This document shows, piece by piece, positions 19,884 through 62,125 of a stretch of 64,000 nt of DNA (the first letter of the stretch is position 1; the number at the start of each line of letters is the position of its first letter). Made by a program: the position numbers and the translations under genes. Source of the stretch: an archaeon (GTDB taxonomy: Archaea > Nanobdellota > Nanobdellia > Pacearchaeales > GW2011-AR1); NCBI GenBank assembly GCA_043810285.1, contig JBDROH010000022.1, forward strand, positions 8,484-72,483, given 5' to 3'. Under the pieces are notes generated by a model. The model made no database searches and was not told the origin of the DNA. It was given only the letters and a program-made list of their open reading frames with translations.

Positions 19884-19964
19884 GCCCATATCGCATAATG
19901 GTATTGCACCGGTCTAGAAAACCGGGTCCGAAAGGGCATCCCCGTTCGATTCGGGGTATGGGCG
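19884..19964 (+). tRNA. tRNA-Ser-like class II tRNA with an apparent anticodon AGA (A34). Its 5' half is identical to tRNA-Ser(GGA) at 18858
   Basis: Acceptor GCCCATA/TATGGGC. Anticodon stem CCGGT/ACCGG with loop CTAGAAA. A 14-nt variable arm. T arm CCCCG-TTCGATT-CGGGG. A 3'-end fragment is repeated at 20053-20069. Confidence 0.6.
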
Positions 19965-27249: not shown

Positions 27250-28917
27250 TCAAAACCCATCTCTCTTCTGATACTTAGTATGCAACAATTTCTCTGCTTT
27301 CTTACTCAACGGTTTCCCCAAATACTTCTTATAAATTTCTTTAACAATCGGATTCTCATGAGACCTCCTAAACTTCTTTCTCGAATCCTGTTTATACAAC
27401 GCCTTACTCCTTAATCCTAAAACTTTCTCATCAAAATAAATCGGTTGCCCTCCCCCACCAACACATCCTCCAGGACAAGCCATCATCTCAATAAAATGAT
27501 ACTTATCTTTATCTTTCAACAACCTCCGAATATTCGCCCCACCATTTGCACAAGCATATTTGATAGTTTTATCCCCCAACTTTACCGACCCTGTTTTTAT
27601 CCCCTTAGAATCCCGAAGATTATCAAACTCAACTTTCCTAAGTTCTTTCCCCGCCACAATCTCATAACTCGTCCTCAACGCCGCTTCCATAACTCCTCCA
27701 GCAGTTCCAAAAATATCTCCAGCCCCACTCGCAATTCCAAGAATAGGATCAAATTCCTGATCTTCGAGTTTAGCAAAATCAATATTTTTTTGTTTAATCA
27801 ACCTACCCAACTCTCTCGTCGTAAGAACATAATCCACTTCAGTATTCAACTCAGGACGCGTAGACTCAAACTTCTTCGCAACACAAGGCATAATACTCAC
27901 GACGACAATATCCTTCGGATTTATCTTTGCCTTCTCCGCATAATACGTTTTAATAAGTATACCTAACATTTCATGAGGACTCTTACACGTCGACATATTC
28001 GGAATAAGCTCGGGATAAAAATGCTCCATCATCAAAATCCAACTCGGACAACACGTAGTAATCATCGGGAACAATCCTCCCCCCTTAATCCTCTTCAACA
28101 ATTCTGCAGACTCTTCCATAATAGTCATATCAGCCCCCAAATCCACGTCGAACACCATATCAAAACCACATTGCTTTAATGCTGTAACCATTTTCCCAGT
28201 AACCAAAGTCCCATATTTCATACCAAAAAGTTCCCCTAACGTTGCTCTTATCGACGGTGCTGTCTGCGCAACAACATGCTTCTTAGGATTATCCAATGCC
28301 TCAATAACTTCTTTCAAATGCGACCGCTCAGAAATGGCCCCCACAGGACAATTAATCAAACACTGTCCACATTTTATACAAGCAATATCAGACAAATGTT
28401 TTTCATTATACGGGGTCACATGCTCATTATGTGCCCGACTCGCAAAATCCACTGCAAAAATTTCCTGAATTTTTCCACAGACCTGAACACACCGTCCACA
28501 ATTAACACATTTATTATTATCTCTAACAAGTGCCGCCCCAAGTTCGGGAACATAATTTTTAATCGATTTGAATCTCTCATTATCCAAACCAACCTGCTCA
28601 TAAATTTCTCTCGCCTCAAAATCATTCGACAGTGCACCAATATTTACACCAGGATTCATCAACTCCATATTTCTCCGTCGAGCTTTCAAAACTTTTTTAG
28701 AAGAAGTCATAATTTTAGAATACTCTTTCGCCCTTGTAGAACAAGCAGTCACCAATTTCCCGTCAAGGTCAACCAAACATAATCGACATCTTGCCTCAGG
28801 AAATAAACTTTTGTGATAACATAATGTAGGAATTTTAATATTCTGTTTCTGACATATTTCTAAAATTGTTTTCCCCTCATCGACTTCCAAGTTCTTCCCA
28901 TCAATTGTTATTTTCAT
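27250..28917 (-). CDS. hydA: [FeFe]-hydrogenase catalytic subunit HydA with N-terminal 2Fe-2S and 4Fe-4S ferredoxin domains
   Basis: H-cluster motifs L1 TTCCPSW, L2 MPCVAKKFE and L3 EMMACPGGCVGGGGQP. An N-terminal 2Fe-2S plant-type ferredoxin fold and CxxCxxCxxxCP motifs are present. Confidence 0.85.
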   Translation of the reverse strand: MKITIDGKNLEVDEGKTILEICQKQNIKIPTLCYHKSLFPEARCRLCLVDLDGKLVTACSTRAKEYSKIMTSSKKVLKARRRNMELMNPGVNIGALSNDFEAREIYEQVGLDNERFKSIKNYVPELGAALVRDNNKCVNCGRCVQVCGKIQEIFAVDFASRAHNEHVTPYNEKHLSDIACIKCGQCLINCPVGAISERSHLKEVIEALDNPKKHVVAQTAPSIRATLGELFGMKYGTLVTGKMVTALKQCGFDMVFDVDLGADMTIMEESAELLKRIKGGGLFPMITTCCPSWILMMEHFYPELIPNMSTCKSPHEMLGILIKTYYAEKAKINPKDIVVVSIMPCVAKKFESTRPELNTEVDYVLTTRELGRLIKQKNIDFAKLEDQEFDPILGIASGAGDIFGTAGGVMEAALRTSYEIVAGKELRKVEFDNLRDSKGIKTGSVKLGDKTIKYACANGGANIRRLLKDKDKYHFIEMMACPGGCVGGGGQPIYFDEKVLGLRSKALYKQDSRKKFRRSHENPIVKEIYKKYLGKPLSKKAEKLLHTKYQKRDGF

Positions 28918-30029
28918 TTTATATACTCCCGATAATCTTTTTTAAAATGTTTAAGACTTGTCAATATATGATTTCCACAAGACTGTCCTAATCCACACAA
29001 ACTAGTTTCCTGAATATGTTCTGCAAATTCTTTCAATAACTTTATATCACTCTCGTTGGCCTTTTTATTCTTTATTTTTTTCAACAAATTAACTAATCTT
29101 ATCGTTCCCTCTCTGCACGGAGTACATTTTCCGCAAGACTCGTAAGTATAAAATTTCGCAATACTCAAGCATATATCGACGATGTTATGTCTCTCACCAA
29201 TAAGAATAATACTAAACGCTCCGTGCTGACAATCACTTTTACATATAGTCTCTTGAGACACCGAGGAATTTTTATTAATCGGCATAATCCCTCCAAAACA
29301 ACCAAAAGACATTGCCTTAATTTTCTCCTTGGGTTTAACTGTCTCCAAAATCGTTGACATTTTCACTCCAAGTTCCCATTCATAAACTCCTGGATGATTA
29401 ACATCTCCCGAAATAGAAAACAGCCTATAATCCGGATTCCAATCTTCGTATACCAATGCTTGGGGAACACAAGTTAATGTCTCGACGTTATTCAATACAG
29501 TTGGTTTACCCCATAACCCTGAAATAGTAGGATAAGGAGGCTTGTACATTGAACTACCCCTATTCCCCATTATCGATTGAATAATTGCAGTCTCTTCCCC
29601 ACAAACATACGCACCAGCCCCCCTAACAATTTCAATAGAAACTTTCATCTTAGATTTCTTTAACATCTCTTTTATCTTTTCCTCAAGCTCTTCTCTCAAA
29701 TAATCATACTCTCCTCGAAGATAAATAAAACACCTCTTAACTTTCAAAACATAAGCTGCAATTAACAGTCCTTCAATCATTGTCTCAGGATTATTTTTTA
29801 AAATAAATTTATCCTTAAAAGTTCCTGGCTCACCTTCATCAGCGTTACATATAACATATCGTTCTTTTGCCTTTGTATCCATTGCCACCCCCCATTTTTT
29901 TGCAACAGAAAAATTTACACCTCCCCGACCGCCCAATTTCTTCTTCGATAAAATCTCAAGAACCTTCTTTCGCCCAATTTTTTTAGCCAATTTCAAACCG
30001 GCCAATTTCGTCTCTCTAAGTATCTGCAT
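28914..30029 (-). CDS. hydB: NADH-binding flavoprotein subunit (NuoF/HydB-like) of a multimeric hydrogenase
   Basis: GEPGTFKDK NADH/FMN-binding region and the C-terminal 4Fe-4S motif CGKCTPCREG...C. Overlaps hydA by 4 nt. Confidence 0.8.
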   Translation of the reverse strand: MQILRETKLAGLKLAKKIGRKKVLEILSKKKLGGRGGVNFSVAKKWGVAMDTKAKERYVICNADEGEPGTFKDKFILKNNPETMIEGLLIAAYVLKVKRCFIYLRGEYDYLREELEEKIKEMLKKSKMKVSIEIVRGAGAYVCGEETAIIQSIMGNRGSSMYKPPYPTISGLWGKPTVLNNVETLTCVPQALVYEDWNPDYRLFSISGDVNHPGVYEWELGVKMSTILETVKPKEKIKAMSFGCFGGIMPINKNSSVSQETICKSDCQHGAFSIILIGERHNIVDICLSIAKFYTYESCGKCTPCREGTIRLVNLLKKIKNKKANESDIKLLKEFAEHIQETSLCGLGQSCGNHILTSLKHFKKDYREYIK

Positions 30030-37577: not shown

Positions 37578-37648
37578 TGGGCACAGGAGGAATCAAACCC
37601 CCGCCCCCCGGGCTGGAGCCGAGTAGACTATCATTATCCGATGCACCC
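37578..37648 (-). tRNA. Candidate tRNA-Trp (CCA) with a non-canonical T-loop
   Basis: An isolated roughly 100-nt GC-rich island in an AT-rich intergenic region. Acceptor GGGTGCA/TGTGCCC with two G-U pairs. Anticodon stem CTCGG/CCGGG with loop CTCCAGC. T arm GGGGG-TTTGATT-CCTCC with U at position 56. 71 nt. Confidence 0.45.
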
Positions 37649-50004: not shown

Positions 50005-52176
50005 CTATTGATTCTCAGCCAAACCTTTTCTACTCCTAATCTGCTTAATAACTTTCGCCTGAAACTGAGTTGGTAATTTCTTAAAAGTTTGACTAACCAA
50101 AGACGAAATACCTCGTCCCTCCGTCGCACTTCGTAAATCATTACTCCACCCTATCATCTCTTGAACAGGAAGTTCTGCTCTAATTGTAACTCCAGATTCA
50201 TCCTGCTGAACATCAACTAAAGTCCCTCTTTTTGTTGAAACCAAGGAAGTTACAGCACTCATAAATTCTATAGGTGCTTCAACCTGATGAACCTGAACTG
50301 GCTCAAAAATAGCTGGAGCCGCTTTTGCAAACGCTTCCTTAATCGCCTCTCGAACTGCCGGATAAACCTGTGCCGGTCCACGATGAATAGCATCCTCATG
50401 CAACTTCATATCAACAACTGAAATCTTCATTTTATGGCAAGGTTCTCGAGCCAATGGACCAGCGTCGACAACCTGTTCAAATGAATCTAAAAGTAACTCA
50501 ATAACCTCTCCAATTTGCACAATCCCTTTAGTTCTATCCAAAAAAATACAACCCTTATACACGTCTCGATATTGCTGAGCCTCATCCCGAGGGATACCCA
50601 ACCCAACTAAAGTTTCATCTAATGCCTTATCCTTCTTTTTAATTCGTCCAGTAGGCAATTTACCTTCAACAATAGCCTCGACAATCGCATCTTCTAGCGG
50701 TTCAACACTAATAAAAAAATCATTATGCTTATTCGGGGAACGTCCAATTGCGACATCACTCACTTTCATAACTGATTCCCTAAAGACTACAATAGGAGGA
50801 CCCATTTCAATATCAAGACCTTTCTCAGTTTTAATTCTGTTCTCAATAATTTCCAAATGCAACTCGCCCATTCCAGACATCAAAGATTCTCCAGTCTCTT
50901 CATTAATTTCAATCCTCAAAGAAGGATCTTCTTTCCCAACTCGTCTCAAAACTTCAATCAGCTTCGGTAAATCCGCGGTTCTTTTTGTACTGATAGATTT
51001 TGTAACAACAGGTTCAAATAAATGACTAATCGCCTCAAAAGGTTCAATAGGATTCCTTGAAACAGTTTCACCGACGACAACATTTCTCAAACCTACAATA
51101 CCCACAATATTTCCCGCAACAACTTCATCAATCTGAAATCTTTGAGCACCTTTGTAAATAGAAACCTGCTGAACTCGTACTTTCGTTCCAGCAATATTCA
51201 TATATAACTCATCCCCTTGTTTAATCGTCCCACTAAATAACCTACCACAAGCAACCTCTCCTGCATGAGGATCAACCACAATTTTAATCGGAACAAATGC
51301 CACTTCACCGTTAATATTACAGCTCATCAAATCTTTCGCAGCTTCGCTCTCTAAATCACCATGCCAAATCTTAGGAATCCTATATGCTTGAGCAGTTACA
51401 GGATCTGGATGATTATTAATAACCATATCCAAAACAACCTCGTGGAGAGGTGCTTTTTTCGCTAACTCCTTATATGTCTCTCCACCAGCTTCGGAAGCAT
51501 CAATAACTTCCTTAAAAGAAATCCCCTTCCTCTTCATATAAGGAATACTTAAAGCCCAATTATGAAAAGCCGAACCAAATGCAACAGAACCATCAGCAAC
51601 ATTAACTTGCCACTTCTGTTTGTATCCTTCTTCAGCAATCTGAGCAATCAACTTATTTACATCATTAATAATTTTGATAAACCTCTGTTGCATCTCTTCT
51701 GGAGTCAACTTAACTTCTCTAATCAAACGGTCAACCTTATTAATAAAAAGAATTGGTTTAACCCTCTCTTTCAAAGCCTGTCGAAGGACAGTCTCAGTCT
51801 GAGGCATAATACCTTCAGAAGCACAGCACAAAACAATCGCTCCGTCAACCGCCCTCATAGCTCGAGTAACATCACCACCAAAATCAACATGTCCAGGCGT
51901 TTCAATCAAATTAATTAAATAATCTTTTCCGTCAACACTATGAATCATCGACACTGAAGCTGAATCAATAGTAATACCTCTTTCAGTTTCATCATCATGA
52001 AAATCTAAAGTTCTAGCCTTCCCAGCCAAAGCATGACTCATCATTCCTGCACCTGCTAGGAGATTATCTGAAAAAGTCGTCTTTCCATGGTCAATATGTG
52101 CCGCAATCGCAATATTACGAATATATTTAGGAGTTTTCTGCAATTCCTTAATTCGTGTATTTATATCGGGCGCCAT
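50005..52176 (-). CDS. fusA: Translation elongation factor 2 (aEF-2)
   Basis: AHIDHGKTT G-domain and the diphthamide-region DAIHRGPAQVYPA. 723 aa. Confidence 0.95.
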   Translation of the reverse strand: MAPDINTRIKELQKTPKYIRNIAIAAHIDHGKTTFSDNLLAGAGMMSHALAGKARTLDFHDDETERGITIDSASVSMIHSVDGKDYLINLIETPGHVDFGGDVTRAMRAVDGAIVLCCASEGIMPQTETVLRQALKERVKPILFINKVDRLIREVKLTPEEMQQRFIKIINDVNKLIAQIAEEGYKQKWQVNVADGSVAFGSAFHNWALSIPYMKRKGISFKEVIDASEAGGETYKELAKKAPLHEVVLDMVINNHPDPVTAQAYRIPKIWHGDLESEAAKDLMSCNINGEVAFVPIKIVVDPHAGEVACGRLFSGTIKQGDELYMNIAGTKVRVQQVSIYKGAQRFQIDEVVAGNIVGIVGLRNVVVGETVSRNPIEPFEAISHLFEPVVTKSISTKRTADLPKLIEVLRRVGKEDPSLRIEINEETGESLMSGMGELHLEIIENRIKTEKGLDIEMGPPIVVFRESVMKVSDVAIGRSPNKHNDFFISVEPLEDAIVEAIVEGKLPTGRIKKKDKALDETLVGLGIPRDEAQQYRDVYKGCIFLDRTKGIVQIGEVIELLLDSFEQVVDAGPLAREPCHKMKISVVDMKLHEDAIHRGPAQVYPAVREAIKEAFAKAAPAIFEPVQVHQVEAPIEFMSAVTSLVSTKRGTLVDVQQDESGVTIRAELPVQEMIGWSNDLRSATEGRGISSLVSQTFKKLPTQFQAKVIKQIRSRKGLAENQ

Positions 52177-52322
52177 ATAATAATCGATTGAAAATTCAGT
52201 TTATAAAAGTTTGCATACTAAAAGATAAAATCACCGACGACGATTGAATAAACTTCTCTCCAAAATTCAAATTAAAGATTACCTCACCAACATATATCTC
52301 AAAGTATTCTTTTGATTGCCGA

Positions 52323-52577
52323 TTACCTTCCCCTTATATAAATCCAAAATCCAATAATCGCCAAGATGAAAAAAATCACCCCTAACAAATTCGTATCATT
52401 CGTAGAAAAATTTGAAATTGCATTCCCAGTAATATTAGTAACCAAAAATATAAGGCTCAAAGCAAAGCTACCCATACTCAAAATCAAAGTCATCCTACGG
52501 CTAACATTTCTCTCACTGCCGTCGACAACTATAACCTCTGGATTAGGTTTTCTAGCTTTATCTTTTAATATCACCAT
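52323..52577 (-). CDS. Small membrane protein (hypothetical) between EF-2 and S7
   Basis: 84-aa ORF with two hydrophobic helices. Weak support. Confidence 0.25.
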   Translation of the reverse strand: MVILKDKARKPNPEVIVVDGSERNVSRRMTLILSMGSFALSLIFLVTNITGNAISNFSTNDTNLLGVIFFILAIIGFWIYIRGR

Positions 52578-52648
52578 CTAAATAGAACAAAAATCTCCTT
52601 TAAATATATTTTGTAAACAACATAATTAATAATCTTAGTAAATAAAAC

Positions 52649-53263
52649 TTACCTAGCAGCATCTGCTTGCTTTTCAGCATCATTCTTCTTAGAAACAGCA
52701 TAACTCTCCGAACTACCTTCCGCAGCCAACATTAATTCTTTAGCTAAAGATTCGACAATCGTTGCCTTCTTATTAAAGGCTTTATCATAAGACCCATTGA
52801 TTATATACCTAAGAACCAAGTTCAATCTTCTTCTAGGAGAAACATCAACAGCCTGAGGATACCGAGCACCACCATATTCAATTGCAGTTACCATATCCCT
52901 AGGAGCCCCGTTTTCAATCGCCTTAATTAAAATCTTCAGAGGATTTTCTCCAGTTTTCTCCTCAATAATCTTAAACGCATCGATAACAATTTTAGTACAC
53001 CGAACCTGCTTCCCAGTAATTCGTCCAGTAATAATTTTATGTTTCTTCCCTCGAGAACCAGGAACTTGCAATAAATTTATCAATCTCTCAACAACATTAA
53101 CCTTCGCCCTCGTCGGATCCCACTTAATTCTACCGTGAGATTTCAACATTAACTTAGCATTCAAATTAATAACTTTCTTTAAACCAGGGTCTTCAACACG
53201 AACTTCAGAACTATCAAACAAACCAAAAATTTTCATTTCCATCTTATCGTCTTCCTTTCTCAA
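52649..53263 (-). CDS. rps7: Ribosomal protein uS7
   Basis: The [16 protein letters not shown] motif and an archaeal S7 length. Confidence 0.9.
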
Positions 53264-53666
53264 TCTTACCGGACCAAAGTCTAGCTAATGACTGATCATT
53301 TACTTTAATAACCTGAAACCGCACACCAGACAAATCTCCTTTCGTCCGTCCCTGTTTCCCACCAATTCGTTCAATCACAACCTCGTCATGCTCATCTACA
53401 AACTTCTGAGCCAAGTTCCCAGGAATAAAAGCCGTAACTTCCTTACCATTTTTAATCAACTGAACCCTGCAACATTTTCTCATAGCCGAGTTAGGCTGCT
53501 TCGCCTCTTTCTGAATCTTTTTAATGACAATACCTTTCGCTTGAGATGCTCGCCCAATAGGGTCAAACTTCAAACTAATTCCAAGTCGCTTTTTCTTCGC
53601 TGGCAACTTGTTATCTCTAAATTTCTTTCGAGATTTCTTCAATTTCAATGCATTCATCAATCCCAT
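53244..53666 (-). CDS. rps12: Ribosomal protein uS12
   Basis: [26 protein letters not shown] conserved core. Confidence 0.9.
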
Positions 53667-53741: not shown

Positions 53742-54167
53742 CTACACAATTCGTAACTTAACAACATTAAAAAAATTTTTCAAAACCTCAGACAACTCCT
53801 TTTCTCTTTGACGATTTCGTCCAATCAAAGAAGCTTTACTCTGACGCCCTGCATTAATCACTACAGAATTTTCTTTTACCTCAATTTTATTAAATTCAAT
53901 AGGACTAATAACTGCCTCGACAAATTTTCCAATCTCATCATTATTGTTAATCATAGGCATAGCTACAACCCTGATTTTTCTTCTCAAGATACCATTAAGT
54001 TTCTTAACATTTATCCCATCTCTTCCAATTGCTCTTGAAACTTGTGTCTTAGGTACTGCAAAAATTATCTGATTATTATAAAAAAAACATTTTGTCGTCG
54101 AAACTTTTGTTACTCTAGCAAATAAATTAAGATATCTAATCAATTGCATATTAATAATTTCTGCCAT
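53742..54167 (-). CDS. nusA: Archaeal NusA-like KH-domain protein
   Basis: About 140 aa with two KH-like segments (VAVPKTQVSRAIGRDGINVKKL). Canonical position between L30e and S12. Confidence 0.75.
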   Translation of the reverse strand: MAEIINMQLIRYLNLFARVTKVSTTKCFFYNNQIIFAVPKTQVSRAIGRDGINVKKLNGILRRKIRVVAMPMINNNDEIGKFVEAVISPIEFNKIEVKENSVVINAGRQSKASLIGRNRQREKELSEVLKNFFNVVKLRIV

Positions 54168-54168
54168 C

Positions 54169-54468
54169 TTATTTTTTTTTATTTACAGAAGATAAATCTT
54201 TAGAAGCGATAGAAAAAACTTCGCATTCAAAGTCAAGATTTAGTTCCTTGGCTAAATCTTCTTTAGATTTCAAAACAATAAATTCGACTCCTGCGGAATC
54301 CAGTTTTTCAACAGTTTCATCTCGAGCATCTTTACTAATAAAAACATTAGATAATTTGACCCCCTTCGATTTGGGGTCTGCCGAGTGGCCAGCATGTTTC
54401 AAGGCCTGTCGAATCCCAAAGTAAACCTTTCCTTGTTCTATCGCTTCATTAATTTCCTTTACTGACAT
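54169..54468 (-). CDS. rpl30e: Ribosomal protein eL30 (L7Ae/L30e fold)
   Basis: 99 aa with the GKVYFGIRQALK N-terminal region. Canonical position after rpoA. Confidence 0.75.
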   Translation of the reverse strand: MSVKEINEAIEQGKVYFGIRQALKHAGHSADPKSKGVKLSNVFISKDARDETVEKLDSAGVEFIVLKSKEDLAKELNLDFECEVFSIASKDLSSVNKKK

Positions 54469-57400
54469 TTTTTTTAACTCCCTTCGATTTTTCCCGTTCC
54501 GCTAAAGAACCTGTAACTTTAACCAATAAACCTGGAAGACCTGTTCCAACAGGAACTGGTTGGTTTAATATAATATTCTCGATTACCGACGCTAGCCTAT
54601 CCCTCTTACCTGTCTTTGTTGCCTGGACAAATTGAGGAACTGGAGTTTCAAATGAGGCTCTTGCTAAAATCGAACTCTTATCCGAAATAATACCCATTCG
54701 AGTAATACCCTTAACCACTCCAGAAGCAGTCATTGTATCTGCAACCAACATAGCATGTTTCCAGTCAATTGCAAGACCTTGGGAGGTAACAACTTTTTGA
54801 ATCTCATTAATTATCGCCTGTCGTGCAGCCTCGATACCAATAGTATTAGCAATCTCATGAATGTCATTAGTAACAACCTTGTCACTATCAACGCCTTTGA
54901 ACTTCAAAATTTCTTTCAAGTTTGAACCTGCAGTCAAAATAACATAGTCCCTCTCTCGCTTAACAACTAATACTTGAGAAATACCTTTAATACCTGTCAA
55001 GATAACTTCCTTAAGTTTTTCTTTAGTTTTATAAATCATCTTGAAATCTTCTTTAGCCATATCAAGCACAAAACCATCTGAGGATTTTTTCGCACTAAAG
55101 CCTTTTTCATTCAAAACCTTAAGAGCACTATCAATATTGATATGTGCCGCCTTCAATCCAGTTGAATCAACACCAATCTTAATTTTCTTCGAACCAAAAT
55201 CAATAGCAATATCAGAAATAATTTCCTTCAACTTAACCTCTTTAATCTTCTCCGCAATAACTCTTGCGTCCTTCTCATTATTATGCTCTTTATCTAAATA
55301 GATTTCCATCGAAGGAGTTTTAGGTAATTTTCTCGCATCTAAAATTTCAACAAGTCTCGGAAGACCTTGGGTAACCTGCATTTCCGCTACACCCGCCGCA
55401 TGGAACACATTCAGAACCATCTGCGTCGACGCCTCTCCAAAAGACTGAGCAGTCACAACACCAATAGCCTCGCCAGGCGCAACCTTGCCACCAGTATGCT
55501 TAGCTGAAATATCAACACCATCAAGACCATAAATATATTGAACGATATTATTTGAAGCATCTCTTACAGTTCCATCATAAGCCACAACCAAATCCTGCAA
55601 AGCATTCGCTAAACGTCTAAATAAATAACCAGACTTAGGAGTTCTAAGTGCAACATCCATTAGACCATCTCTTCCAGTCATAGCACCAAAAAATAATTCA
55701 TCAGGTTCAAAACCTTTCATCAAAGAACTATAAATAAATCCGTGGGGTCTTGGCGACAAATCTCCTTTCTTGAAAAACGGTAAAGTTCTTTCAGTATAAC
55801 CAAAATCAATTCTACGCCCGTGAAGAACTTGCTGTCCAACCGAACAAGCAATCTGAGTAATATTCAACAAACTTCCCCCAGCTCCAGAGCTAATCATCTT
55901 ATTCGCTAAATTATCTTTAGGAAAACCAGCCTTAACAGCGTCACCAATATCAGTTCGAATCTCATTCAAAGCATGCAAAATCTTAGTTTCCCTCGTTTCC
56001 TCAGCACTCTTTCCAGGCAAACATTCAAGACTTTTATCGTAATAACTTTCTATAATCTTTTGGGTCTTAATTTCCGCAGCCTCGATAATTTTTTGAGTCT
56101 TCTTCTTAACTTCTTCAGGAACGTCAAGATCATCTGCAGAAAGAGTAAATCCCGTTCTCGACACAAAATTTGCTCCCAATGAAAAAACCTTTTTCAAAAG
56201 TTCAATAGTTCTCTCTCGACCAATCTTCTTATCTGCGATTCTCAGAACTGCACCGCTACCACTCTTAAATCCCTTAGGATCGATACTCTCATTTGCAATT
56301 TCCTTAGGAATAAGTTTCGCAAAAATATCTTTTCCAGAATTATTCTTATTCAAATTCCCCACCTCTACATTATTTTCGTACAACAACTGAGCCGCATCCT
56401 CTTTACTCAATTCGGATTCACCAAGAATGAAATTACCACTAACAGCGTCCTTAACACATCCAATAAAATTCATATTATTCTTAGGTGAAAATAGGTTCGC
56501 GTTGACATTCAACAAAATTTTTGCCTCAGCTCGAGCTTCTTCGGTTTGAGGAGCATGGATATTCATTTCATCACCATCAAAATCCGCACCATAAGGAGCA
56601 CAAACTGCTGGATGAATTCTGAACGTCCTTCCGGGAAGAACCTTTACTAAATGAGCCATAAGCGAAGCCCTATGCAAAGACGGATGTCGGTTAAATAAAA
56701 CAATATCTCCATCAACAAGATGTCGTTCAACAATATAACCTGGCTCAATTTCGTTCTGCAAATCTTCTCTCAAATCATCAGTAATTCGCTTCCTCTTTTC
56801 ATCAGGTCGAATAATATAATTAGCTCCAGGGTAACCCTTAGCCGCAATCAATTTTTTCATACGATTAATATTTCTAGAAGTAACTTTCTCAGCTACAGTC
56901 AAAACATTAGCAACAGTTAAGGGAATACCTACTTCATTCAACTTCAAATTAGGATCTGGAGAAATCACAGTTCTTGCAGAATAATTAACTCTCTTCCCCG
57001 CTAAATTCTTCCTAATTCTACCTTCCTTACCTTTAATTCTTTCAGTAATAGTCTTCAATGGCTGTCCACTTCTATGCCTTGCAGGAGGAATCTTAGCGAT
57101 AGAATTATCAAAAAATGTAGTAATATGATATTGCAATAAATCCCAAAGATCTTCGATAATAACTTCAGGCGCACCCGCATTCAAATTTTCCCAAAGCCTT
57201 TGATTAGACCGAATAATATCTGACAACTTATGAGTTAGGTCATCCTCTGATCTTTCACCAGTTTGTAACGTAATTGAAGGACGCACAGCGACGGAAGGAA
57301 CAAGTAACAGCGTCAATATAGCCCATTCAGGTCTTAAAGTTGCTGCATTAATTCCCAATACCTTCAAATCCTCGTCAGGAACATTAACTAATCTCTCACG

Positions 57401-57883
57401 AATCTCTGAAGGAAACAATCTCCTTCGCCCACTTCTAAAAGTGCATGGCTTCTCAAGCTTAACCCTTTCCTGAACAATACTACAATGAGGACATTTTTTC
57501 CCATCCTTTGCTTTTTTAATCCTATCAATTAAAGGTTTATTCAAATCTTTCTCATCTTTAATCAAAACTTTTCCACAAGCTTCACAAGTCGATCTTAAAA
57601 CCAAATCAATAATAGGCAGATATTTGATATGAACAATTGGTCGAGCTAACTCAATCATTCCAGGATGACCTAAACATTCTTTCAATCGCCCACCACAAGT
57701 CCTACACCTAACACCCGGGTCAATAGCACCAAGTCGCAAATCCATCAAACCACCGTCAACAGGATAACCATCCACATCATAAAGTTCAGGAGTTACAATT
57801 TTCGCAACAGATAATTTTTTAATCTGTTCAGGACTAACTAAATGAAAATTCATTCCACTAACTTGTTTCTTTACAGGTCTCAT
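54449..57883 (-). CDS. rpoA: DNA-directed RNA polymerase subunit A as a single fused A'/A'' polypeptide of 1144 aa
   Basis: Clamp/zipper Cys motifs, NRHPSLH, the active-site YGADFDGDEMN, bridge helix GRDGLMDVALRTPKSGYLFRRL, the trigger loop (normally in A'') GEAIGVVTAQSFGEASTQMVLNVFHAAG, and an A''-like C-terminus, all in one frame with no stop. Confidence 0.9.
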   Translation of the reverse strand: MRPVKKQVSGMNFHLVSPEQIKKLSVAKIVTPELYDVDGYPVDGGLMDLRLGAIDPGVRCRTCGGRLKECLGHPGMIELARPIVHIKYLPIIDLVLRSTCEACGKVLIKDEKDLNKPLIDRIKKAKDGKKCPHCSIVQERVKLEKPCTFRSGRRRLFPSEIRERLVNVPDEDLKVLGINAATLRPEWAILTLLLVPSVAVRPSITLQTGERSEDDLTHKLSDIIRSNQRLWENLNAGAPEVIIEDLWDLLQYHITTFFDNSIAKIPPARHRSGQPLKTITERIKGKEGRIRKNLAGKRVNYSARTVISPDPNLKLNEVGIPLTVANVLTVAEKVTSRNINRMKKLIAAKGYPGANYIIRPDEKRKRITDDLREDLQNEIEPGYIVERHLVDGDIVLFNRHPSLHRASLMAHLVKVLPGRTFRIHPAVCAPYGADFDGDEMNIHAPQTEEARAEAKILLNVNANLFSPKNNMNFIGCVKDAVSGNFILGESELSKEDAAQLLYENNVEVGNLNKNNSGKDIFAKLIPKEIANESIDPKGFKSGSGAVLRIADKKIGRERTIELLKKVFSLGANFVSRTGFTLSADDLDVPEEVKKKTQKIIEAAEIKTQKIIESYYDKSLECLPGKSAEETRETKILHALNEIRTDIGDAVKAGFPKDNLANKMISSGAGGSLLNITQIACSVGQQVLHGRRIDFGYTERTLPFFKKGDLSPRPHGFIYSSLMKGFEPDELFFGAMTGRDGLMDVALRTPKSGYLFRRLANALQDLVVAYDGTVRDASNNIVQYIYGLDGVDISAKHTGGKVAPGEAIGVVTAQSFGEASTQMVLNVFHAAGVAEMQVTQGLPRLVEILDARKLPKTPSMEIYLDKEHNNEKDARVIAEKIKEVKLKEIISDIAIDFGSKKIKIGVDSTGLKAAHINIDSALKVLNEKGFSAKKSSDGFVLDMAKEDFKMIYKTKEKLKEVILTGIKGISQVLVVKRERDYVILTAGSNLKEILKFKGVDSDKVVTNDIHEIANTIGIEAARQAIINEIQKVVTSQGLAIDWKHAMLVADTMTASGVVKGITRMGIISDKSSILARASFETPVPQFVQATKTGKRDRLASVIENIILNQPVPVGTGLPGLLVKVTGSLAEREKSKGVKKNVSKGN

Positions 57884-57885
57884 AA

Positions 57886-60800
57886 TTACTCGTATTTATT
57901 TTTCAAATGAAATTTAGTTATAATATGTAATCCTTGCAATTCTTCAATCAATAATTTGAAAGCATACGAAACTTCAATAGGCTCAACCTGATTTGAATGA
58001 CACAATCTACAAACTTTCTTGTTGTGAATTTTATCATCAATAACAAGACTTCCACACTTTGAACAGATATGAATAAGAACTTTGTCTGAATCGTAACGTT
58101 CTTTTAATAAAAGTGATGCTCCGTGCCCTACAAGTGCCTCTTGCTCCATTTCACCAAGCCTTAAAGCTCCTCCACGAGCCCGACCTTCAATAGGTTGCCT
58201 AGTCAATAAAGCAATCTTTCCAGATGCCCGAGCATGTAACCTATCCGCAACCATATACTTTAATTTCAAATAAAACATATTACCAATAAAAATTTTAACC
58301 GGCATCCTCTGTCCACTAATCCCATTATACATAATCTCCTTACCATTCTCCCTAAATCCTAACTTCTTCAAATTATTTTCTAAAGTATCAATAGTCTCTC
58401 CTGTAAACGCAGAAGCATCAATGATTTTTCCAGAAAGAGCCGCAACCTTACCACCAAGAATATCCATTAGATAACTAACAGTCATACGAGAAGGAATACC
58501 ATGTGGATTAAACATAATATCTGGCCGAATACCGTTAACTGTAAATGGAATATCTGCCTCTGGAGCAACCATACCCACAATACCTTTCTGACTATGAGGG
58601 TTTGAAAATTTATCTCCAATCTCCGGAATTCTTAACTCTCGTGTTCTAACCTGAACAATCTTATTACCCTCTTTATCTTGAGCAACAAAAACAGCATCAA
58701 TAATACCTGTTTCCTCTTGACGAATCGCAGAAGAAGCTTCATTTTTAGTTTGAATTGAAATCTCACGAGCTTCACTCAAAAACTTAGGAGGACTAATTTT
58801 TCCAATAACCACCTCTCCAGAAATCATCTCAGCTTCAGGATAAACAATTCCATCATCTTCTAAAAACCTATAACTCTCTTCAGTCCTATAACCTGAAACA
58901 TCTTTATCTGGAACAACAATCTCGTCTTTAAGACCTCCTGCATAATTCAACTCAACAGAAACATAAGGTCTAAATCTCGAACTTCGAGCAAGACCTCTAT
59001 CAACTGAACCCTTATTCAAAACTGTAGCATCTTCAATATTATACCCTTCATAAGGTAAAATACCTAATATCACATTTTGCCCAACAGGATGAACATCTAA
59101 GGTATCATAAATGAAAGTTCTAACTAGAGGTTTCTGGGGGTAATGTAAAAGTGAAACATCAGTATCAATTCTAACTGGAAAATTTCCAGCATAAAGACCA
59201 AGACCTTGACGGTAAGCTCTCGAACCACCCTTAACCATACGTGCAGGAGGACTATGATTACCAAACGGAATCAGTGCAACACTAACACCCAAAAGATCCA
59301 CAGGATCAACCTCAAGATGAGTATGCTCCTCAGTCAAATCACTTTCATTAAGTGCAACATAACAATCATCTTCTTCAGCAGCATCAAGATATTCTAAAAT
59401 TTTCTCCTTGAACAAGCCTTCCCAAGTTAAACTCCCATTACGAATTAATTCTAAATGTTCTGTCCTCAATTTTGAAACACCATTTTCAACAATAATCAGC
59501 GGACGTATAACTCTTCCAATCTCAGAGCTTATAAAAACCGTATCTAGAAATTTATCAAATTTTACAGACATTTCAATAGGTAACTTACCTTCTCGACGAT
59601 AATCCCTCACAACACTAACGAATGCTCTCACATCATTAGTAACTCCAATAAATCTCCCATTATAAAAAATATCAATATCTCCTTCATCATTTTTATTTAC
59701 AAACCCTTTTAAAATATTTAAGATATTCCCGTGATCCATCAAGGTTCGTGTTGAAATCCTTGCAAGTAAAGCCAAGTTCTTCCTCAACCCAATTTCAGTC
59801 CCTTCAGGAGTTTCAATAGGACAGAACCGACCATAATGGGTAGGATGAACTGTTCGTGCAGCTAAATTTTCTTGCTCACCTGGAAGAGTCGAAGTAACTC
59901 TCTGCAACTGAGACATAACTGAAAAAGAATTATTCATATCCATATTTTGAGTTACACCATTTCGCTCACCAATCCATGAACCTGTAGCAATCGCACTCTC
60001 TATTCGATGTGTGAACAAAGTAGATTTAGCAATTGTTTTAATAGAAAAAAACTTACGTCTCTTCACAGTCTTTTGTAATGTATGTTGAACTTCTCGAAGA
60101 AGAATACTCATATTTACCCTAAACAAATCCGACAATAAATCCCCTGAAAGCCTAACTCTCTTATTCGCATAATGGTCTTTATCAGTCATTGAATCTTTCG
60201 GATTTTCTTTCGTAACGTAAAATTGTTTAATAAATTTACAAAGAGTTTTAGCTTTCTCAAGCCGAGTTTCCTTATTAAGTCCGATATGTGGCAAAAAATA
60301 CGAATCTATTCTTTGCTTAACCCTATCAAGCATTTCCTTATTAGTTCCTTGCAACGAACTCTTCTCGGCAATCCACATCAAAGCATCGTTAACATTTGTA
60401 ACAGTAGCAAATTCATAAAAATTAACAATTAACCCATCTGTCTGTTTCCGAACTAATTTGGCAATATCAGCATCACTAGAAAGACCTAAAGCTTTCAACA
60501 AAACCATTGCGGGAATATCTCTAAATCTAGAAAAAGAAACTTCCAAGATTCCCTCAGAATTCTCAGACAATGAAATAGGAATTTTGTAAGCATCCTTCTG
60601 AGAAAACAAACGCAAAACCAACCGCTTCTTGATTTTCTGCCACTCAATAAACGTCTGATTCGATGCCAAATCCTCTGCCATAACCATCACTCTTTCATTA
60701 CCGTTAATCAAAAAATAACCACCGGTATCTTTAGGATCAATATAATTCTTAATCAAATCTTCCTCACTCATCCCATTAAGATTACAAGCCCCACTCTTAA

Positions 60801-61149
60801 TCATAATTGGAATTCTTCCAAGTTCTACCTTTTCAGTTTCAATCTGTCCTGCATAATTAATTGTCATCTCTATCCAAATTGGAGCTGAATAAGTTAATTT
60901 TCTTAACCTTGCCTCTGCAGGAGTTACCAGCTTCGAAGAACCATCCGACTCGATTATATTTGGTTTACCTACAATAACCTTTCCCAGTTTAATTTCAAAA
61001 TCCTCATTAGGTAATGAATCCGAAAGTCCAGTAACAATTTCCTGCATCCTAGTTTCAACAAAATCATTAAAAGATTTAATATTAGATTCGACTAGCGAAT
61101 GATTTTTCAAAAACTCTCTAACTAAAATATGATCATTTATCGCAACCAT
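57886..61149 (-). CDS. rpoB: DNA-directed RNA polymerase subunit B (unsplit). The start is taken at the internal Met MVAINDH, and the ORF-track start at 61200 would overlap rpoH by 50 nt
   Basis: Conserved Rpb2 motifs: the GEMEQ-like RLGEMEQEA and the C-terminal zinc ribbon CSKCGS...CRLC. About 1090-1104 aa. Confidence 0.9.
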   Translation of the reverse strand: MVAINDHILVREFLKNHSLVESNIKSFNDFVETRMQEIVTGLSDSLPNEDFEIKLGKVIVGKPNIIESDGSSKLVTPAEARLRKLTYSAPIWIEMTINYAGQIETEKVELGRIPIMIKSGACNLNGMSEEDLIKNYIDPKDTGGYFLINGNERVMVMAEDLASNQTFIEWQKIKKRLVLRLFSQKDAYKIPISLSENSEGILEVSFSRFRDIPAMVLLKALGLSSDADIAKLVRKQTDGLIVNFYEFATVTNVNDALMWIAEKSSLQGTNKEMLDRVKQRIDSYFLPHIGLNKETRLEKAKTLCKFIKQFYVTKENPKDSMTDKDHYANKRVRLSGDLLSDLFRVNMSILLREVQHTLQKTVKRRKFFSIKTIAKSTLFTHRIESAIATGSWIGERNGVTQNMDMNNSFSVMSQLQRVTSTLPGEQENLAARTVHPTHYGRFCPIETPEGTEIGLRKNLALLARISTRTLMDHGNILNILKGFVNKNDEGDIDIFYNGRFIGVTNDVRAFVSVVRDYRREGKLPIEMSVKFDKFLDTVFISSEIGRVIRPLIIVENGVSKLRTEHLELIRNGSLTWEGLFKEKILEYLDAAEEDDCYVALNESDLTEEHTHLEVDPVDLLGVSVALIPFGNHSPPARMVKGGSRAYRQGLGLYAGNFPVRIDTDVSLLHYPQKPLVRTFIYDTLDVHPVGQNVILGILPYEGYNIEDATVLNKGSVDRGLARSSRFRPYVSVELNYAGGLKDEIVVPDKDVSGYRTEESYRFLEDDGIVYPEAEMISGEVVIGKISPPKFLSEAREISIQTKNEASSAIRQEETGIIDAVFVAQDKEGNKIVQVRTRELRIPEIGDKFSNPHSQKGIVGMVAPEADIPFTVNGIRPDIMFNPHGIPSRMTVSYLMDILGGKVAALSGKIIDASAFTGETIDTLENNLKKLGFRENGKEIMYNGISGQRMPVKIFIGNMFYLKLKYMVADRLHARASGKIALLTRQPIEGRARGGALRLGEMEQEALVGHGASLLLKERYDSDKVLIHICSKCGSLVIDDKIHNKKVCRLCHSNQVEPIEVSYAFKLLIEELQGLHIITKFHLKNKYE

Positions 61150-61150
61150 T

Positions 61151-61354
61151 TTAAATAACCACCCGAAAATATACCTCTGCAAAATCGCCTTTCCTCTCAA
61201 TCTTCACAACATCTCCAGTATTGCAACCTTCTGGAAGAGCTGGATCTTTCTTAGAAATTTTAGGCAGTTGTGCTAAAGCAATATTAAATTGTGCTAAAAT
61301 CCTCTCAGCTTCGTCGGAATTCAATTTCTCGTGCTTCGGTTGGAGGGCGTGCAT
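61151..61354 (-). CDS. rpoH: RNA polymerase subunit H (Rpb5 C-terminal domain homolog)
   Basis: 67 aa with the HxLVPKHE-like region LQPKHEKLNSDEAERIL and the C-terminal GDVVKIERK. Confidence 0.75.
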   Translation of the reverse strand: MHALQPKHEKLNSDEAERILAQFNIALAQLPKISKKDPALPEGCNTGDVVKIERKGDFAEVYFRVVI

Positions 61355-61459: not shown

Positions 61460-62125
61460 TTATAATCTATTTTTTATTTGAGAGTAAATTTCAGTTCTAG
61501 AACACTTAGGTTTAAGATAATCTTTGACCTTCGAACCGATTAGAATTTCAGAAAAACTGTTACTCAAATTTAAAAAAAATGCTTCAGGACCCAAGCCTTT
61601 AATTAAATGAGGCAAATCAACAAGTTTTCTTCGAATTTTCTCTTGTTTCTTTTCAATCTTTAAATTATTAATATTAAAAGGCACACCCAAAGATGAATCA
61701 AATACATTATTAAACGACGCTTCAATTCTAGATTGCTCACTCGGAAAAATAATCTGTTCTTTCCCTAAATCAAAATCAATACCCTCGCCAGTTAAAACAC
61801 CATAATCTAGATGAAATTGAGTTGAAAATGTCATCTTTATAGGTAAGACCATCTTTGAAGTATCATTAAAAGAATCAATATATTTTATAGGTTCTCGATG
61901 ATACCTCACAATAGCTATTTCTTTACCTCTAGAATCCCTTACTTGATTATCCAATTCATAAAAAGATTTCCAAGATATAGAATTTGTGCCAACAGAACAA
62001 AAAACAAAATCATCAAACTTTTTCCCTAAACTTTCTTCTCCCTCCTTAATTCGTTCCCTTAAAGAATTAATTTCATCGTGTGTGTCTTGTAACTTCTTCG
62101 AAAGTCCTTCAACCCTTTCATTCAT
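61460..62125 (-). CDS. Hypothetical protein
   Basis: 221-aa ORF with no motif recognised. Confidence 0.4.
   Translation of the reverse strand: MNERVEGLSKKLQDTHDEINSLRERIKEGEESLGKKFDDFVFCSVGTNSISWKSFYELDNQVRDSRGKEIAIVRYHREPIKYIDSFNDTSKMVLPIKMTFSTQFHLDYGVLTGEGIDFDLGKEQIIFPSEQSRIEASFNNVFDSSLGVPFNINNLKIEKKQEKIRRKLVDLPHLIKGLGPEAFFLNLSNSFSEILIGSKVKDYLKPKCSRTEIYSQIKNRL

Follow-up and report, generated by a model that had tools for sequence, protein, structure and literature searches.

The largest subunit of the archaeal RNA polymerase (RNAP) is commonly encoded as two halves, A′ and A″ (Rpo1N and Rpo1C), by a pair of neighbouring genes, the A′ gene ending after about 850–900 codons and A″ having a start of its own, as in Woesearchaeota, Euryarchaeota and Crenarchaeota (PDB 2PMZ, 4QIW and 8CRO). 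In an excerpt from Da Cunha et al. 2017 (PLoS Genet, PMC5484517), the A-type subunit is a single polypeptide in Thaumarchaeota and Korarchaeota, is fused in Bathyarchaeota too, and is the subject of ‘a secondary fusion in Pacearchaeota’, with the split region aligned in S29 Fig; a single rpoA in Thaumarchaeota is also reported in PMC4084955. Eukaryotic Rpb1 and bacterial beta′ likewise carry the bridge helix and the trigger loop on one polypeptide. Here we analyze the rpoA gene in a stretch of 64,000 nucleotides of contig JBDROH010000022.1 (assembly GCA_043810285.1, positions 8,484 to 72,483 of the forward strand; hereafter the window), where one open reading frame (ORF) holds the equivalents of both A′ and A″. 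A first-pass annotation of this DNA had set that ORF against a near-universal archaeal split, a premise that does not hold: single-gene RpoA is standard in Thaumarchaeota, Korarchaeota and Bathyarchaeota, according to the same excerpt and PMC4084955 and as seen in a bathyarchaeal locus of our own genome scan (L064).

The rpoA ORF comprises 1144 codons uninterrupted by stops, so that neither the two adjacent genes nor the separate A″ start of the split type is present. Rpb1 domains 1–5 lie inside it in canonical order, at residues 5–294, 296–460, 463–586, 614–717 and 724–1072 (Pfam; E-values 1.9e-77 to 1.3e-08), and the first-pass annotation had placed the active-site motif, the bridge helix and the trigger loop correctly; its estimate of about 45 residues between bridge helix and trigger loop proved exact (45, from 737–758 to 804–831). 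It had also found no separate rpoA″, and we agree, because a tblastn search of the RpoA protein against the whole window returned no second rpoA-like sequence. The gene and its parts are arranged as follows.

54449..57883, minus strand: rpoA, the whole largest RNAP subunit (A′ and A″ equivalents), a 1144-residue ORF identified by Pfam, NCBIfam and PDB matches
55490..57883, minus strand: A′-equivalent part, residues 1 to about 798, with Zn sites, active site, funnel and bridge helix, from alignment to A′ chains and from split relatives, whose A′ terminates at query residue about 798–801
56561..56590, minus strand: catalytic motif GADFDGDEMN, residues 432–441, from motif position
55610..55675, minus strand: bridge helix motif, residues 737–758, from motif position, aligning to the bridge-helix regions of Rpb1 and A′
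55475..55510, minus strand: fusion junction, residues 792–803, ISAKHTGGKVAP, from alignment with split and unsplit relatives and length counts in 77 sequences
55391..55474, minus strand: trigger loop motif, residues 804–831, from motif position, aligning to Rpb1 1049 onward and to A″ from its residues 51–58 onward
54449..55489, minus strand: A″-equivalent part, residues about 799–1144, with trigger loop, jaw and C-terminal clamp, from Rpo1C/A″ chains and TIGR02389

Within ADFDGDEMN (residues 433–441), the Mg-binding triad of DFDGD (D434, D436 and D438) is complete and invariant in 50 relatives, and the Zn-site residues of the clamp (C60, C63, C70 and H73, with C100, C103, C131 and C134) are invariant in the 50-sequence alignment. 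Trigger-loop residues Q821, L824, N825 and H828, equivalent to Rpb1 1078, 1081, 1082 and 1085, are conserved. The two NCBIfam half-subunit models give a mixed result: the A′ model NF006336 matches the N-terminal part (best stretch 4–530) and scores 1024 against a cut-off of 819, while the A″ model TIGR02389 matches 792–1116 and scores 377 against 420.65, falling short because nothing in the protein corresponds to its first 31 profile positions and the alignment begins at position 32. The protein differs from Rpb1 in having no C-terminal domain, and it has none of the lineage-specific inserts of beta′. Except for Gly432, considered below, it is unambiguously a member of the largest subunits of multisubunit RNAPs.

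The closest homologues of the window's RpoA are the split A′/A″ forms, which occupy the same operon and share all of its catalytic and structural elements apart from the segment at the split site. Inter-anchor lengths, counted between the conserved query positions D791 and P802 in 77 sequences, differ sharply between groups, as follows.

Window and most of the fused clade: 10 residues
Remainder of the fused clade: 11–12 residues
33 split forms: median 74 residues (range 32–110)
Unsplit bathyarchaeal L064 (1281 residues in full): 83 residues

The split forms additionally carry stop and start codons here. What the window lacks relative to the split lineages is therefore the gene boundary together with about 65–75 flanking codons, namely 16–24 residues from the C-terminus of A′, the stop and start between the genes, and 50–57 residues from the N-terminus of A″. 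Matches to known structures place the gap at the same point. A′/Rpo1N chains align to the N-terminal half and stop at residue 856 of the 880 in the Saccharolobus chain or 887 of the 906 in the Thermococcus chain, 19–24 residues short of their C-termini, and Rpo1C/A″ chains align from their own residue 51–58 and cover query 792–1124. The alignment to Rpb1 and to split chains proposed in the first-pass annotation thus shows the two halves of the protein matching A′ and A″ chains and meeting at about residues 792–803, and since the alignment ends abut inside the junction, the ORF is not a mere read-through of two genes. Against yeast Rpb1, the aligned blocks cover 753–876 and 1049 onward, leaving about 172 residues (877–1048) without a counterpart in the window. 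Rpb1 877–1048 is reported to be the ‘foot’ domain (Cramer et al. 2001); a search of the literature for the ‘foot’ domain together with the split site gave no usable statement.

The segment absent from the window is old. In split Woesearchaeota it can be aligned with that of unsplit Bathyarchaeota, so the segment is ancestral and its loss in the fused clade is derived. The junction left behind is conserved at the protein level among the fused relatives. Across DPANN lineages the length of the split-site segment runs from 6 to 110 residues, which suggests that the lost surface segment is dispensable.

Relatives were collected in two ways: a protein-cluster search of a large protein database drawing on NCBI, JGI, ENA, Logan and Tara assemblies (clusters numbered P), and a scan in which each GTDB species was represented by a single genome, which gave 80 loci, re-analyzed ORF by ORF (loci numbered L). 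At least 120 clusters have 76–92% identity to the window's RpoA at lengths of 1121–1170 residues, all with Rpb1 domains 1, 2, 4 and 5 and all except four with domain 3. Every locus at or above 57% identity (range 57–91%; 42 loci, of which 39 are full-length and 3 partial) reads through the junction, which is 10–12 residues long in every member of the fused clade. In contrast, in 29 Woesearchaeota-type loci at 50–55% identity A′ and A″ are distinct ORFs, the break falling at about query residue 795–801, and four further split loci at 35–45% identity (labelled Micrarchaeota, Aenigmatarchaeota and Nanohaloarchaeota) are broken at the same site. The unsplit bathyarchaeal gene of L064 is 40% identical to the window's. 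The label Candidatus Pacearchaeota is attached to top protein matches (P0001, at 92%, and P0077, P0089, P0096 and P0102) and to loci L010, L011, L012, L014, L018, L021, L024 and L031. The window's gene thus has the features of the published Pacearchaeota case, being a single rpoA whose top matches are named Pacearchaeota and which is nested among split DPANN forms. Compared with Pacearchaeota RpoA as given in the excerpt from PMC5484517, it has the same lineage label on its closest matches and the same secondary A′/A″ fusion, and we see no essential difference.

Two apparent irregularities among these loci were rejected as biology, namely an rpoA frameshift in L036 (L036:3540-3560) that coincides with an Illumina-adapter-like string, and an rpoB–rpoA fusion in L034 (L034:2900-3000) that is a run of 100 N. 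In an otherwise fused rpoA, L013 has a lone in-frame TAA at query residue ∼489 (L013:4441-4443), distant from the canonical split site; a sequencing error, decay to a pseudogene and a newly arisen split may each account for it. Several Woesearchaeota-type loci have peculiarities of their own. The A″ ORF of L063 (L063:5546-8152) is 869 residues long, with an intein that interrupts the trigger loop after TQM and before TLNVFH and whose sequence begins with Cys, ends with HN and includes a LAGLIDADG-like block; the 850-residue A″ ORF of L073 (L073:2895-5444) has an extension of ∼470 residues that matches it in length. In a Woesearchaeota subclade represented by L075:229-6324 and L080:1-4005, the order is rpoB′–rpoA″–rpoA′, so that A″ precedes A′, whereas canonically it follows.

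We built a neighbour-joining tree from 1126 well-occupied RpoA columns, leaving out the junction, with a Bathyarchaeota root and 100 bootstrap replicates. The Pacearchaeota-type fused forms are monophyletic and sister to split forms: their clade, that of the split Woesearchaeota and the pairing of the two as sisters each received 100% bootstrap support. With the fused architecture, its conservation, the split state of the sister group and the missing segment all directly observed, we regard the window's rpoA as very probably a secondary fusion of ancestrally split A′ and A″. That the fusion was secondary and came with an in-frame loss is argued from the sister clade, because the Woesearchaeota-type genes are split at the canonical site and have a median of 74 residues there. 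Taken jointly with this re-joining, it is highly likely that rpoA is a genuine functional gene of a Pacearchaeota-type archaeon (DPANN; Nanoarchaeota sensu GTDB), whose product is predicted to be enzymatically active.

In such a history, split A′ and A″ genes would have been re-joined into one reading frame. The simplest route would be one in-frame deletion of about 200 nucleotides, running from the 3′ end of A′ across the stop and the start into the 5′ end of A″; alternatively, the stop codon would have been lost first and the segment would have shrunk afterwards. The outcome would be a 10-residue connector that ties the segment after the bridge helix straight to the trigger loop and keeps the catalytic elements in their usual order, with both halves produced 1:1 and assembling in cis. 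A single fusion event in the ancestor of the clade would have been inherited by all its descendants. Among extant split loci the two genes are often poised for such an event: in 6 of the 9 examined (L040, L043, L044, L053, L059 and L071), A′ and A″ are in the same frame with one stop between them and 0–3 codons, the A″ start lying 0–3 codons past the stop where this was checked (L040, L043, L053 and L071). Fusion is therefore mechanistically easy, as one substitution would suffice.

Several points weigh against this reading. The tree is a neighbour-joining tree of RpoA itself rather than a species tree under a site-heterogeneous model, and the NCBI organism labels within the fused clade are mixed (Pacearchaeota, Woesearchaeota and Nanoarchaeota). 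Compact fused forms in L046, L054 and L058 branch among split DPANN lineages; because of their position, simple parsimony at the depth of all DPANN comes close to a tie, with four fusions against three splits. An AlphaFold2 model of the fused RpoA, made from the 50-sequence alignment, is too poor for junction geometry (mean predicted local distance difference test score 52, below 50 at the junction; predicted template modelling score 0.31), and the connector geometry and the contacts presumably lost with the deleted segment are read from sequence. Likewise, the single uncleaved 130-kDa RpoA chain is a prediction from the gene.

The alternative that survives best, though we consider it unlikely, is that the window retains an ancestral unsplit A-type RpoA, as Thaumarchaeota, Korarchaeota and Bathyarchaeota do, which never passed through a split stage and lost only the junction segment. 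It draws on the unsplit RpoA known in several archaeal phyla, L064 included, which resembles the window's in being one gene with the same domain order, and on the compact fused forms scattered through DPANN, which leave the deep polarity ambiguous by simple parsimony. Besides L046, L054 and L058, these include single-chain RpoA in at least six other 50%-identity clusters (P0124, P0125, P0165, P0172, P0196 and P0236). Labels among the compact forms are Altiarchaeota, Aenigmatarchaeota and Nanohaloarchaeota, the last attached to the metagenome-assembled genome behind P0125. Those outside the fused clade are 1125–1246 residues long and 35–45% identical to the window's RpoA, with 41–53 residues from bridge helix to trigger loop by an alignment-based count, and they indicate at the sequence level that compact fused RpoA is recurrent in DPANN-like lineages.

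However, the unsplit A-type is longer than the window's RpoA (1281 residues in L064) and has 83 residues between the anchors rather than 10, and the window's protein groups with split DPANN forms and has no TACK affinity. Its closest sequences are split (50–55% identity, against 40% for Bathyarchaeota), and its sister clade is split at full bootstrap support. Every split archaeal gene compared breaks at one and the same site, that of DPANN genes being also that of Euryarchaeota and Crenarchaeota, which points to one old split followed by repeated fusions; at the depth of all DPANN this is the sole point that tips the balance toward repeated fusion. The ease of fusion in same-frame loci argues in the same direction, as does rpoB, which was demonstrably re-fused in the same lineage from within split forms (see below).

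Much less probable is horizontal acquisition of a fused rpoA, from a lineage or virus with a single-chain large subunit, that displaced the native split genes. Nothing specific speaks for it, although the matches include many metagenomic single-chain large subunits; the window's RpoA is sister to Woesearchaeota-type RpoA at 100% bootstrap, its gene sits in a canonical archaeal operon between rpoB and rpl30e, and rpoB shows the same identity gradient as rpoA across the same loci. An apparent fusion created by errors of sequencing or assembly, such as a missed stop codon, a collapse or a chimeric contig, is the weakest alternative and is effectively refuted: the data are metagenome-derived and the related contigs L036 and L034 do contain artefacts, but the same ORF, with a 10–12 residue junction conserved at the protein level, recurs in the independent genomes of about 40 species (39 loci in full length and 3 in part) and in at least 120 clusters from various projects and assemblers.

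One residue of the catalytic motif departs from the family. Gly432 (codon GGT, 56588..56590) precedes ADFDGD in the window, giving GADFDGD instead of NADFDGD, so that the otherwise invariant Asn, N479 of yeast Rpb1, is missing. Among 120 close clusters the residue at this position is Gly in 52, Ala in 3 and Asn in 65, and of 150 diverse representatives taken at 50% identity, 141 have Asn and 2 have Gly. Gly is also found in loci L001–L004 and L030, and the Gly-bearing loci form a clade with L005, which has Asn, at 100% bootstrap. In yeast Rpb1, N479 lies where it can touch the ribose hydroxyls of a matched nucleoside triphosphate (NTP), and in the study of Kaplan et al. 2012 (PMC3325174) no elongation defect in vitro was more severe than that of N479S. 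The trigger-loop partners of this Asn, the equivalents of Q1078, L1081, N1082 and H1085, are intact in the window's RpoA.

The gene upstream of rpoA appears to have a similar history. In many archaea compared here rpoB is split into B″ and B′, and the window has a single gene for both.

57886..61149, minus strand: rpoB, 1087 residues from its ATG, fused B″ and B′ equivalents with Pfam Rpb2 domains 1–7
59671..59700, minus strand: rpoB fusion junction, residues 484–493, from alignment of fused and split forms

An NCBIfam B″ model matches RpoB at 6–483 and a B′-length model at 494–1085. Wherever a Woesearchaeota-type locus is informative or an outgroup extends this far, rpoB is split into B″ and B′ at exactly the 484–493 site. 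In a crown clade of 36 members (100% bootstrap), rpoB is a single ORF in each of the 33 whose sequence covers this position. L024, L028 and L032 have kept a split rpoB, although their rpoA is fused, so rpoB was re-fused after rpoA; the basal trio of L031, L032 and L028 is itself recovered at 100% bootstrap. The fused rpoB junction is about as long as the corresponding stretch in split relatives, with no large loss of sequence. From these sequences we conclude that rpoB is a re-fused B″/B′, later than the rpoA fusion. A literature search found no paper on rpoB re-fusion in DPANN.

Both genes belong to a tightly packed operon on the minus strand with the canonical archaeal order rpoH-rpoB-rpoA-rpl30e-nusA-rps12-rps7-EF2, with EF-1alpha after EF-2. 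The other members are as follows.

61151..61354, minus strand: rpoH, 67 residues, Pfam RNA_pol_Rpb5_C 1.3e-17 and NCBIfam subunit H 7.8e-18, its stop abutting the rpoB ATG
54169..54468, minus strand: rpl30e, 99 residues, divergent, from positional orthologues and a family profile, with a 20-nucleotide overlap with the 3′ end of rpoA
53742..54167, minus strand: archaeal nusA-like KH protein, 141 residues, Pfam KH_2 and TIGR01952 at 2e-17
50005..53666, minus strand: rps12, rps7, an 84-residue ORF and EF-2, from Pfam S12, S7 and EF-G domains

The first-pass annotation had named L30e as the gene directly downstream of rpoA. The ORF alone gave no significant match in single-sequence searches of Pfam, NCBIfam and PDB (best Pfam E = 0.0063), and the window's protein has a 10-residue insertion, HSADPKSKGV. 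Its positional orthologues settle the identification as a divergent eL30: PF01248 was matched in 10 of 10 relatives, and the orthologue profile matches eL30 structures at 4e-28. Two relatives, L012 and L014, have no eL30 ORF between rpoA and nusA. The 84-residue predicted membrane protein between rps7 and EF-2 (52323..52577, minus strand) has no family match in NCBIfam, and a 221-residue ORF immediately upstream of rpoH (61460..62125, minus strand) is also without a family match.

Elsewhere in the window, a [FeFe]-hydrogenase large-subunit-like gene (555 residues) adjoins a NuoF-like flavoprotein gene (371 residues) at 27250..30029 on the minus strand, and the pair may be a HydAB-type hydrogenase module in a small-genome archaeon. 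The tRNA callers differ at two places: a tRNA at 37578..37648 (minus strand) was called by Rfam only and not by ARAGORN, and a tRNA-Ser(aga) at 19884..19964 (plus strand) by ARAGORN only and not by Rfam.

Taken together, the description first given of this locus holds for its structure (one chain, an unusually short junction and eL30 next to it), while the significance attached to it does not. The relative survey that the first-pass annotation called for found every relative at or above 57% identity fused, and it had itself held that common fusion among relatives would make the case unremarkable. The rpoA fusion is already known, published and clade-wide, and because all close relatives are fused and the fusion has been in print since 2017, it is a trait of the lineage and not a discovery. 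What goes beyond the statement in the excerpt from Da Cunha et al. 2017 is the loss of ∼65 residues at the junction, the fixation of the fusion in every sampled member and the later re-fusion of rpoB.

The rpoA fusion has served in arguments on the rooting of the archaeal tree, and it is of modest use as a marker, a clean synapomorphy by which genomes of the Pacearchaeota type can be told from those of the Woesearchaeota type despite their mixed labels in databases. For the biochemistry of transcription, the sequential re-fusion of both large subunits and the natural Asn-to-Gly change in NADFDGD are of more interest, and both deserve a specialist look; neither is mentioned in the first-pass annotation. 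We tentatively suggest, as a possibility somewhat short of even, that the RNAP core of this clade was remodelled stepwise: A′ and A″ would have fused with the ∼65-residue deletion, B″ and B′ would have fused later by loss of their boundary after L024, L028 and L032 had diverged, and Asn would then have changed to Gly in the window's subclade. If this is true, if neither of the two later steps has been described before and if the organism has no RNAP of another build, the clade would be a natural experiment, informative about the reasons for the split of archaeal large subunits and about how far NTP selection can do without the Asn of NADFDGD.

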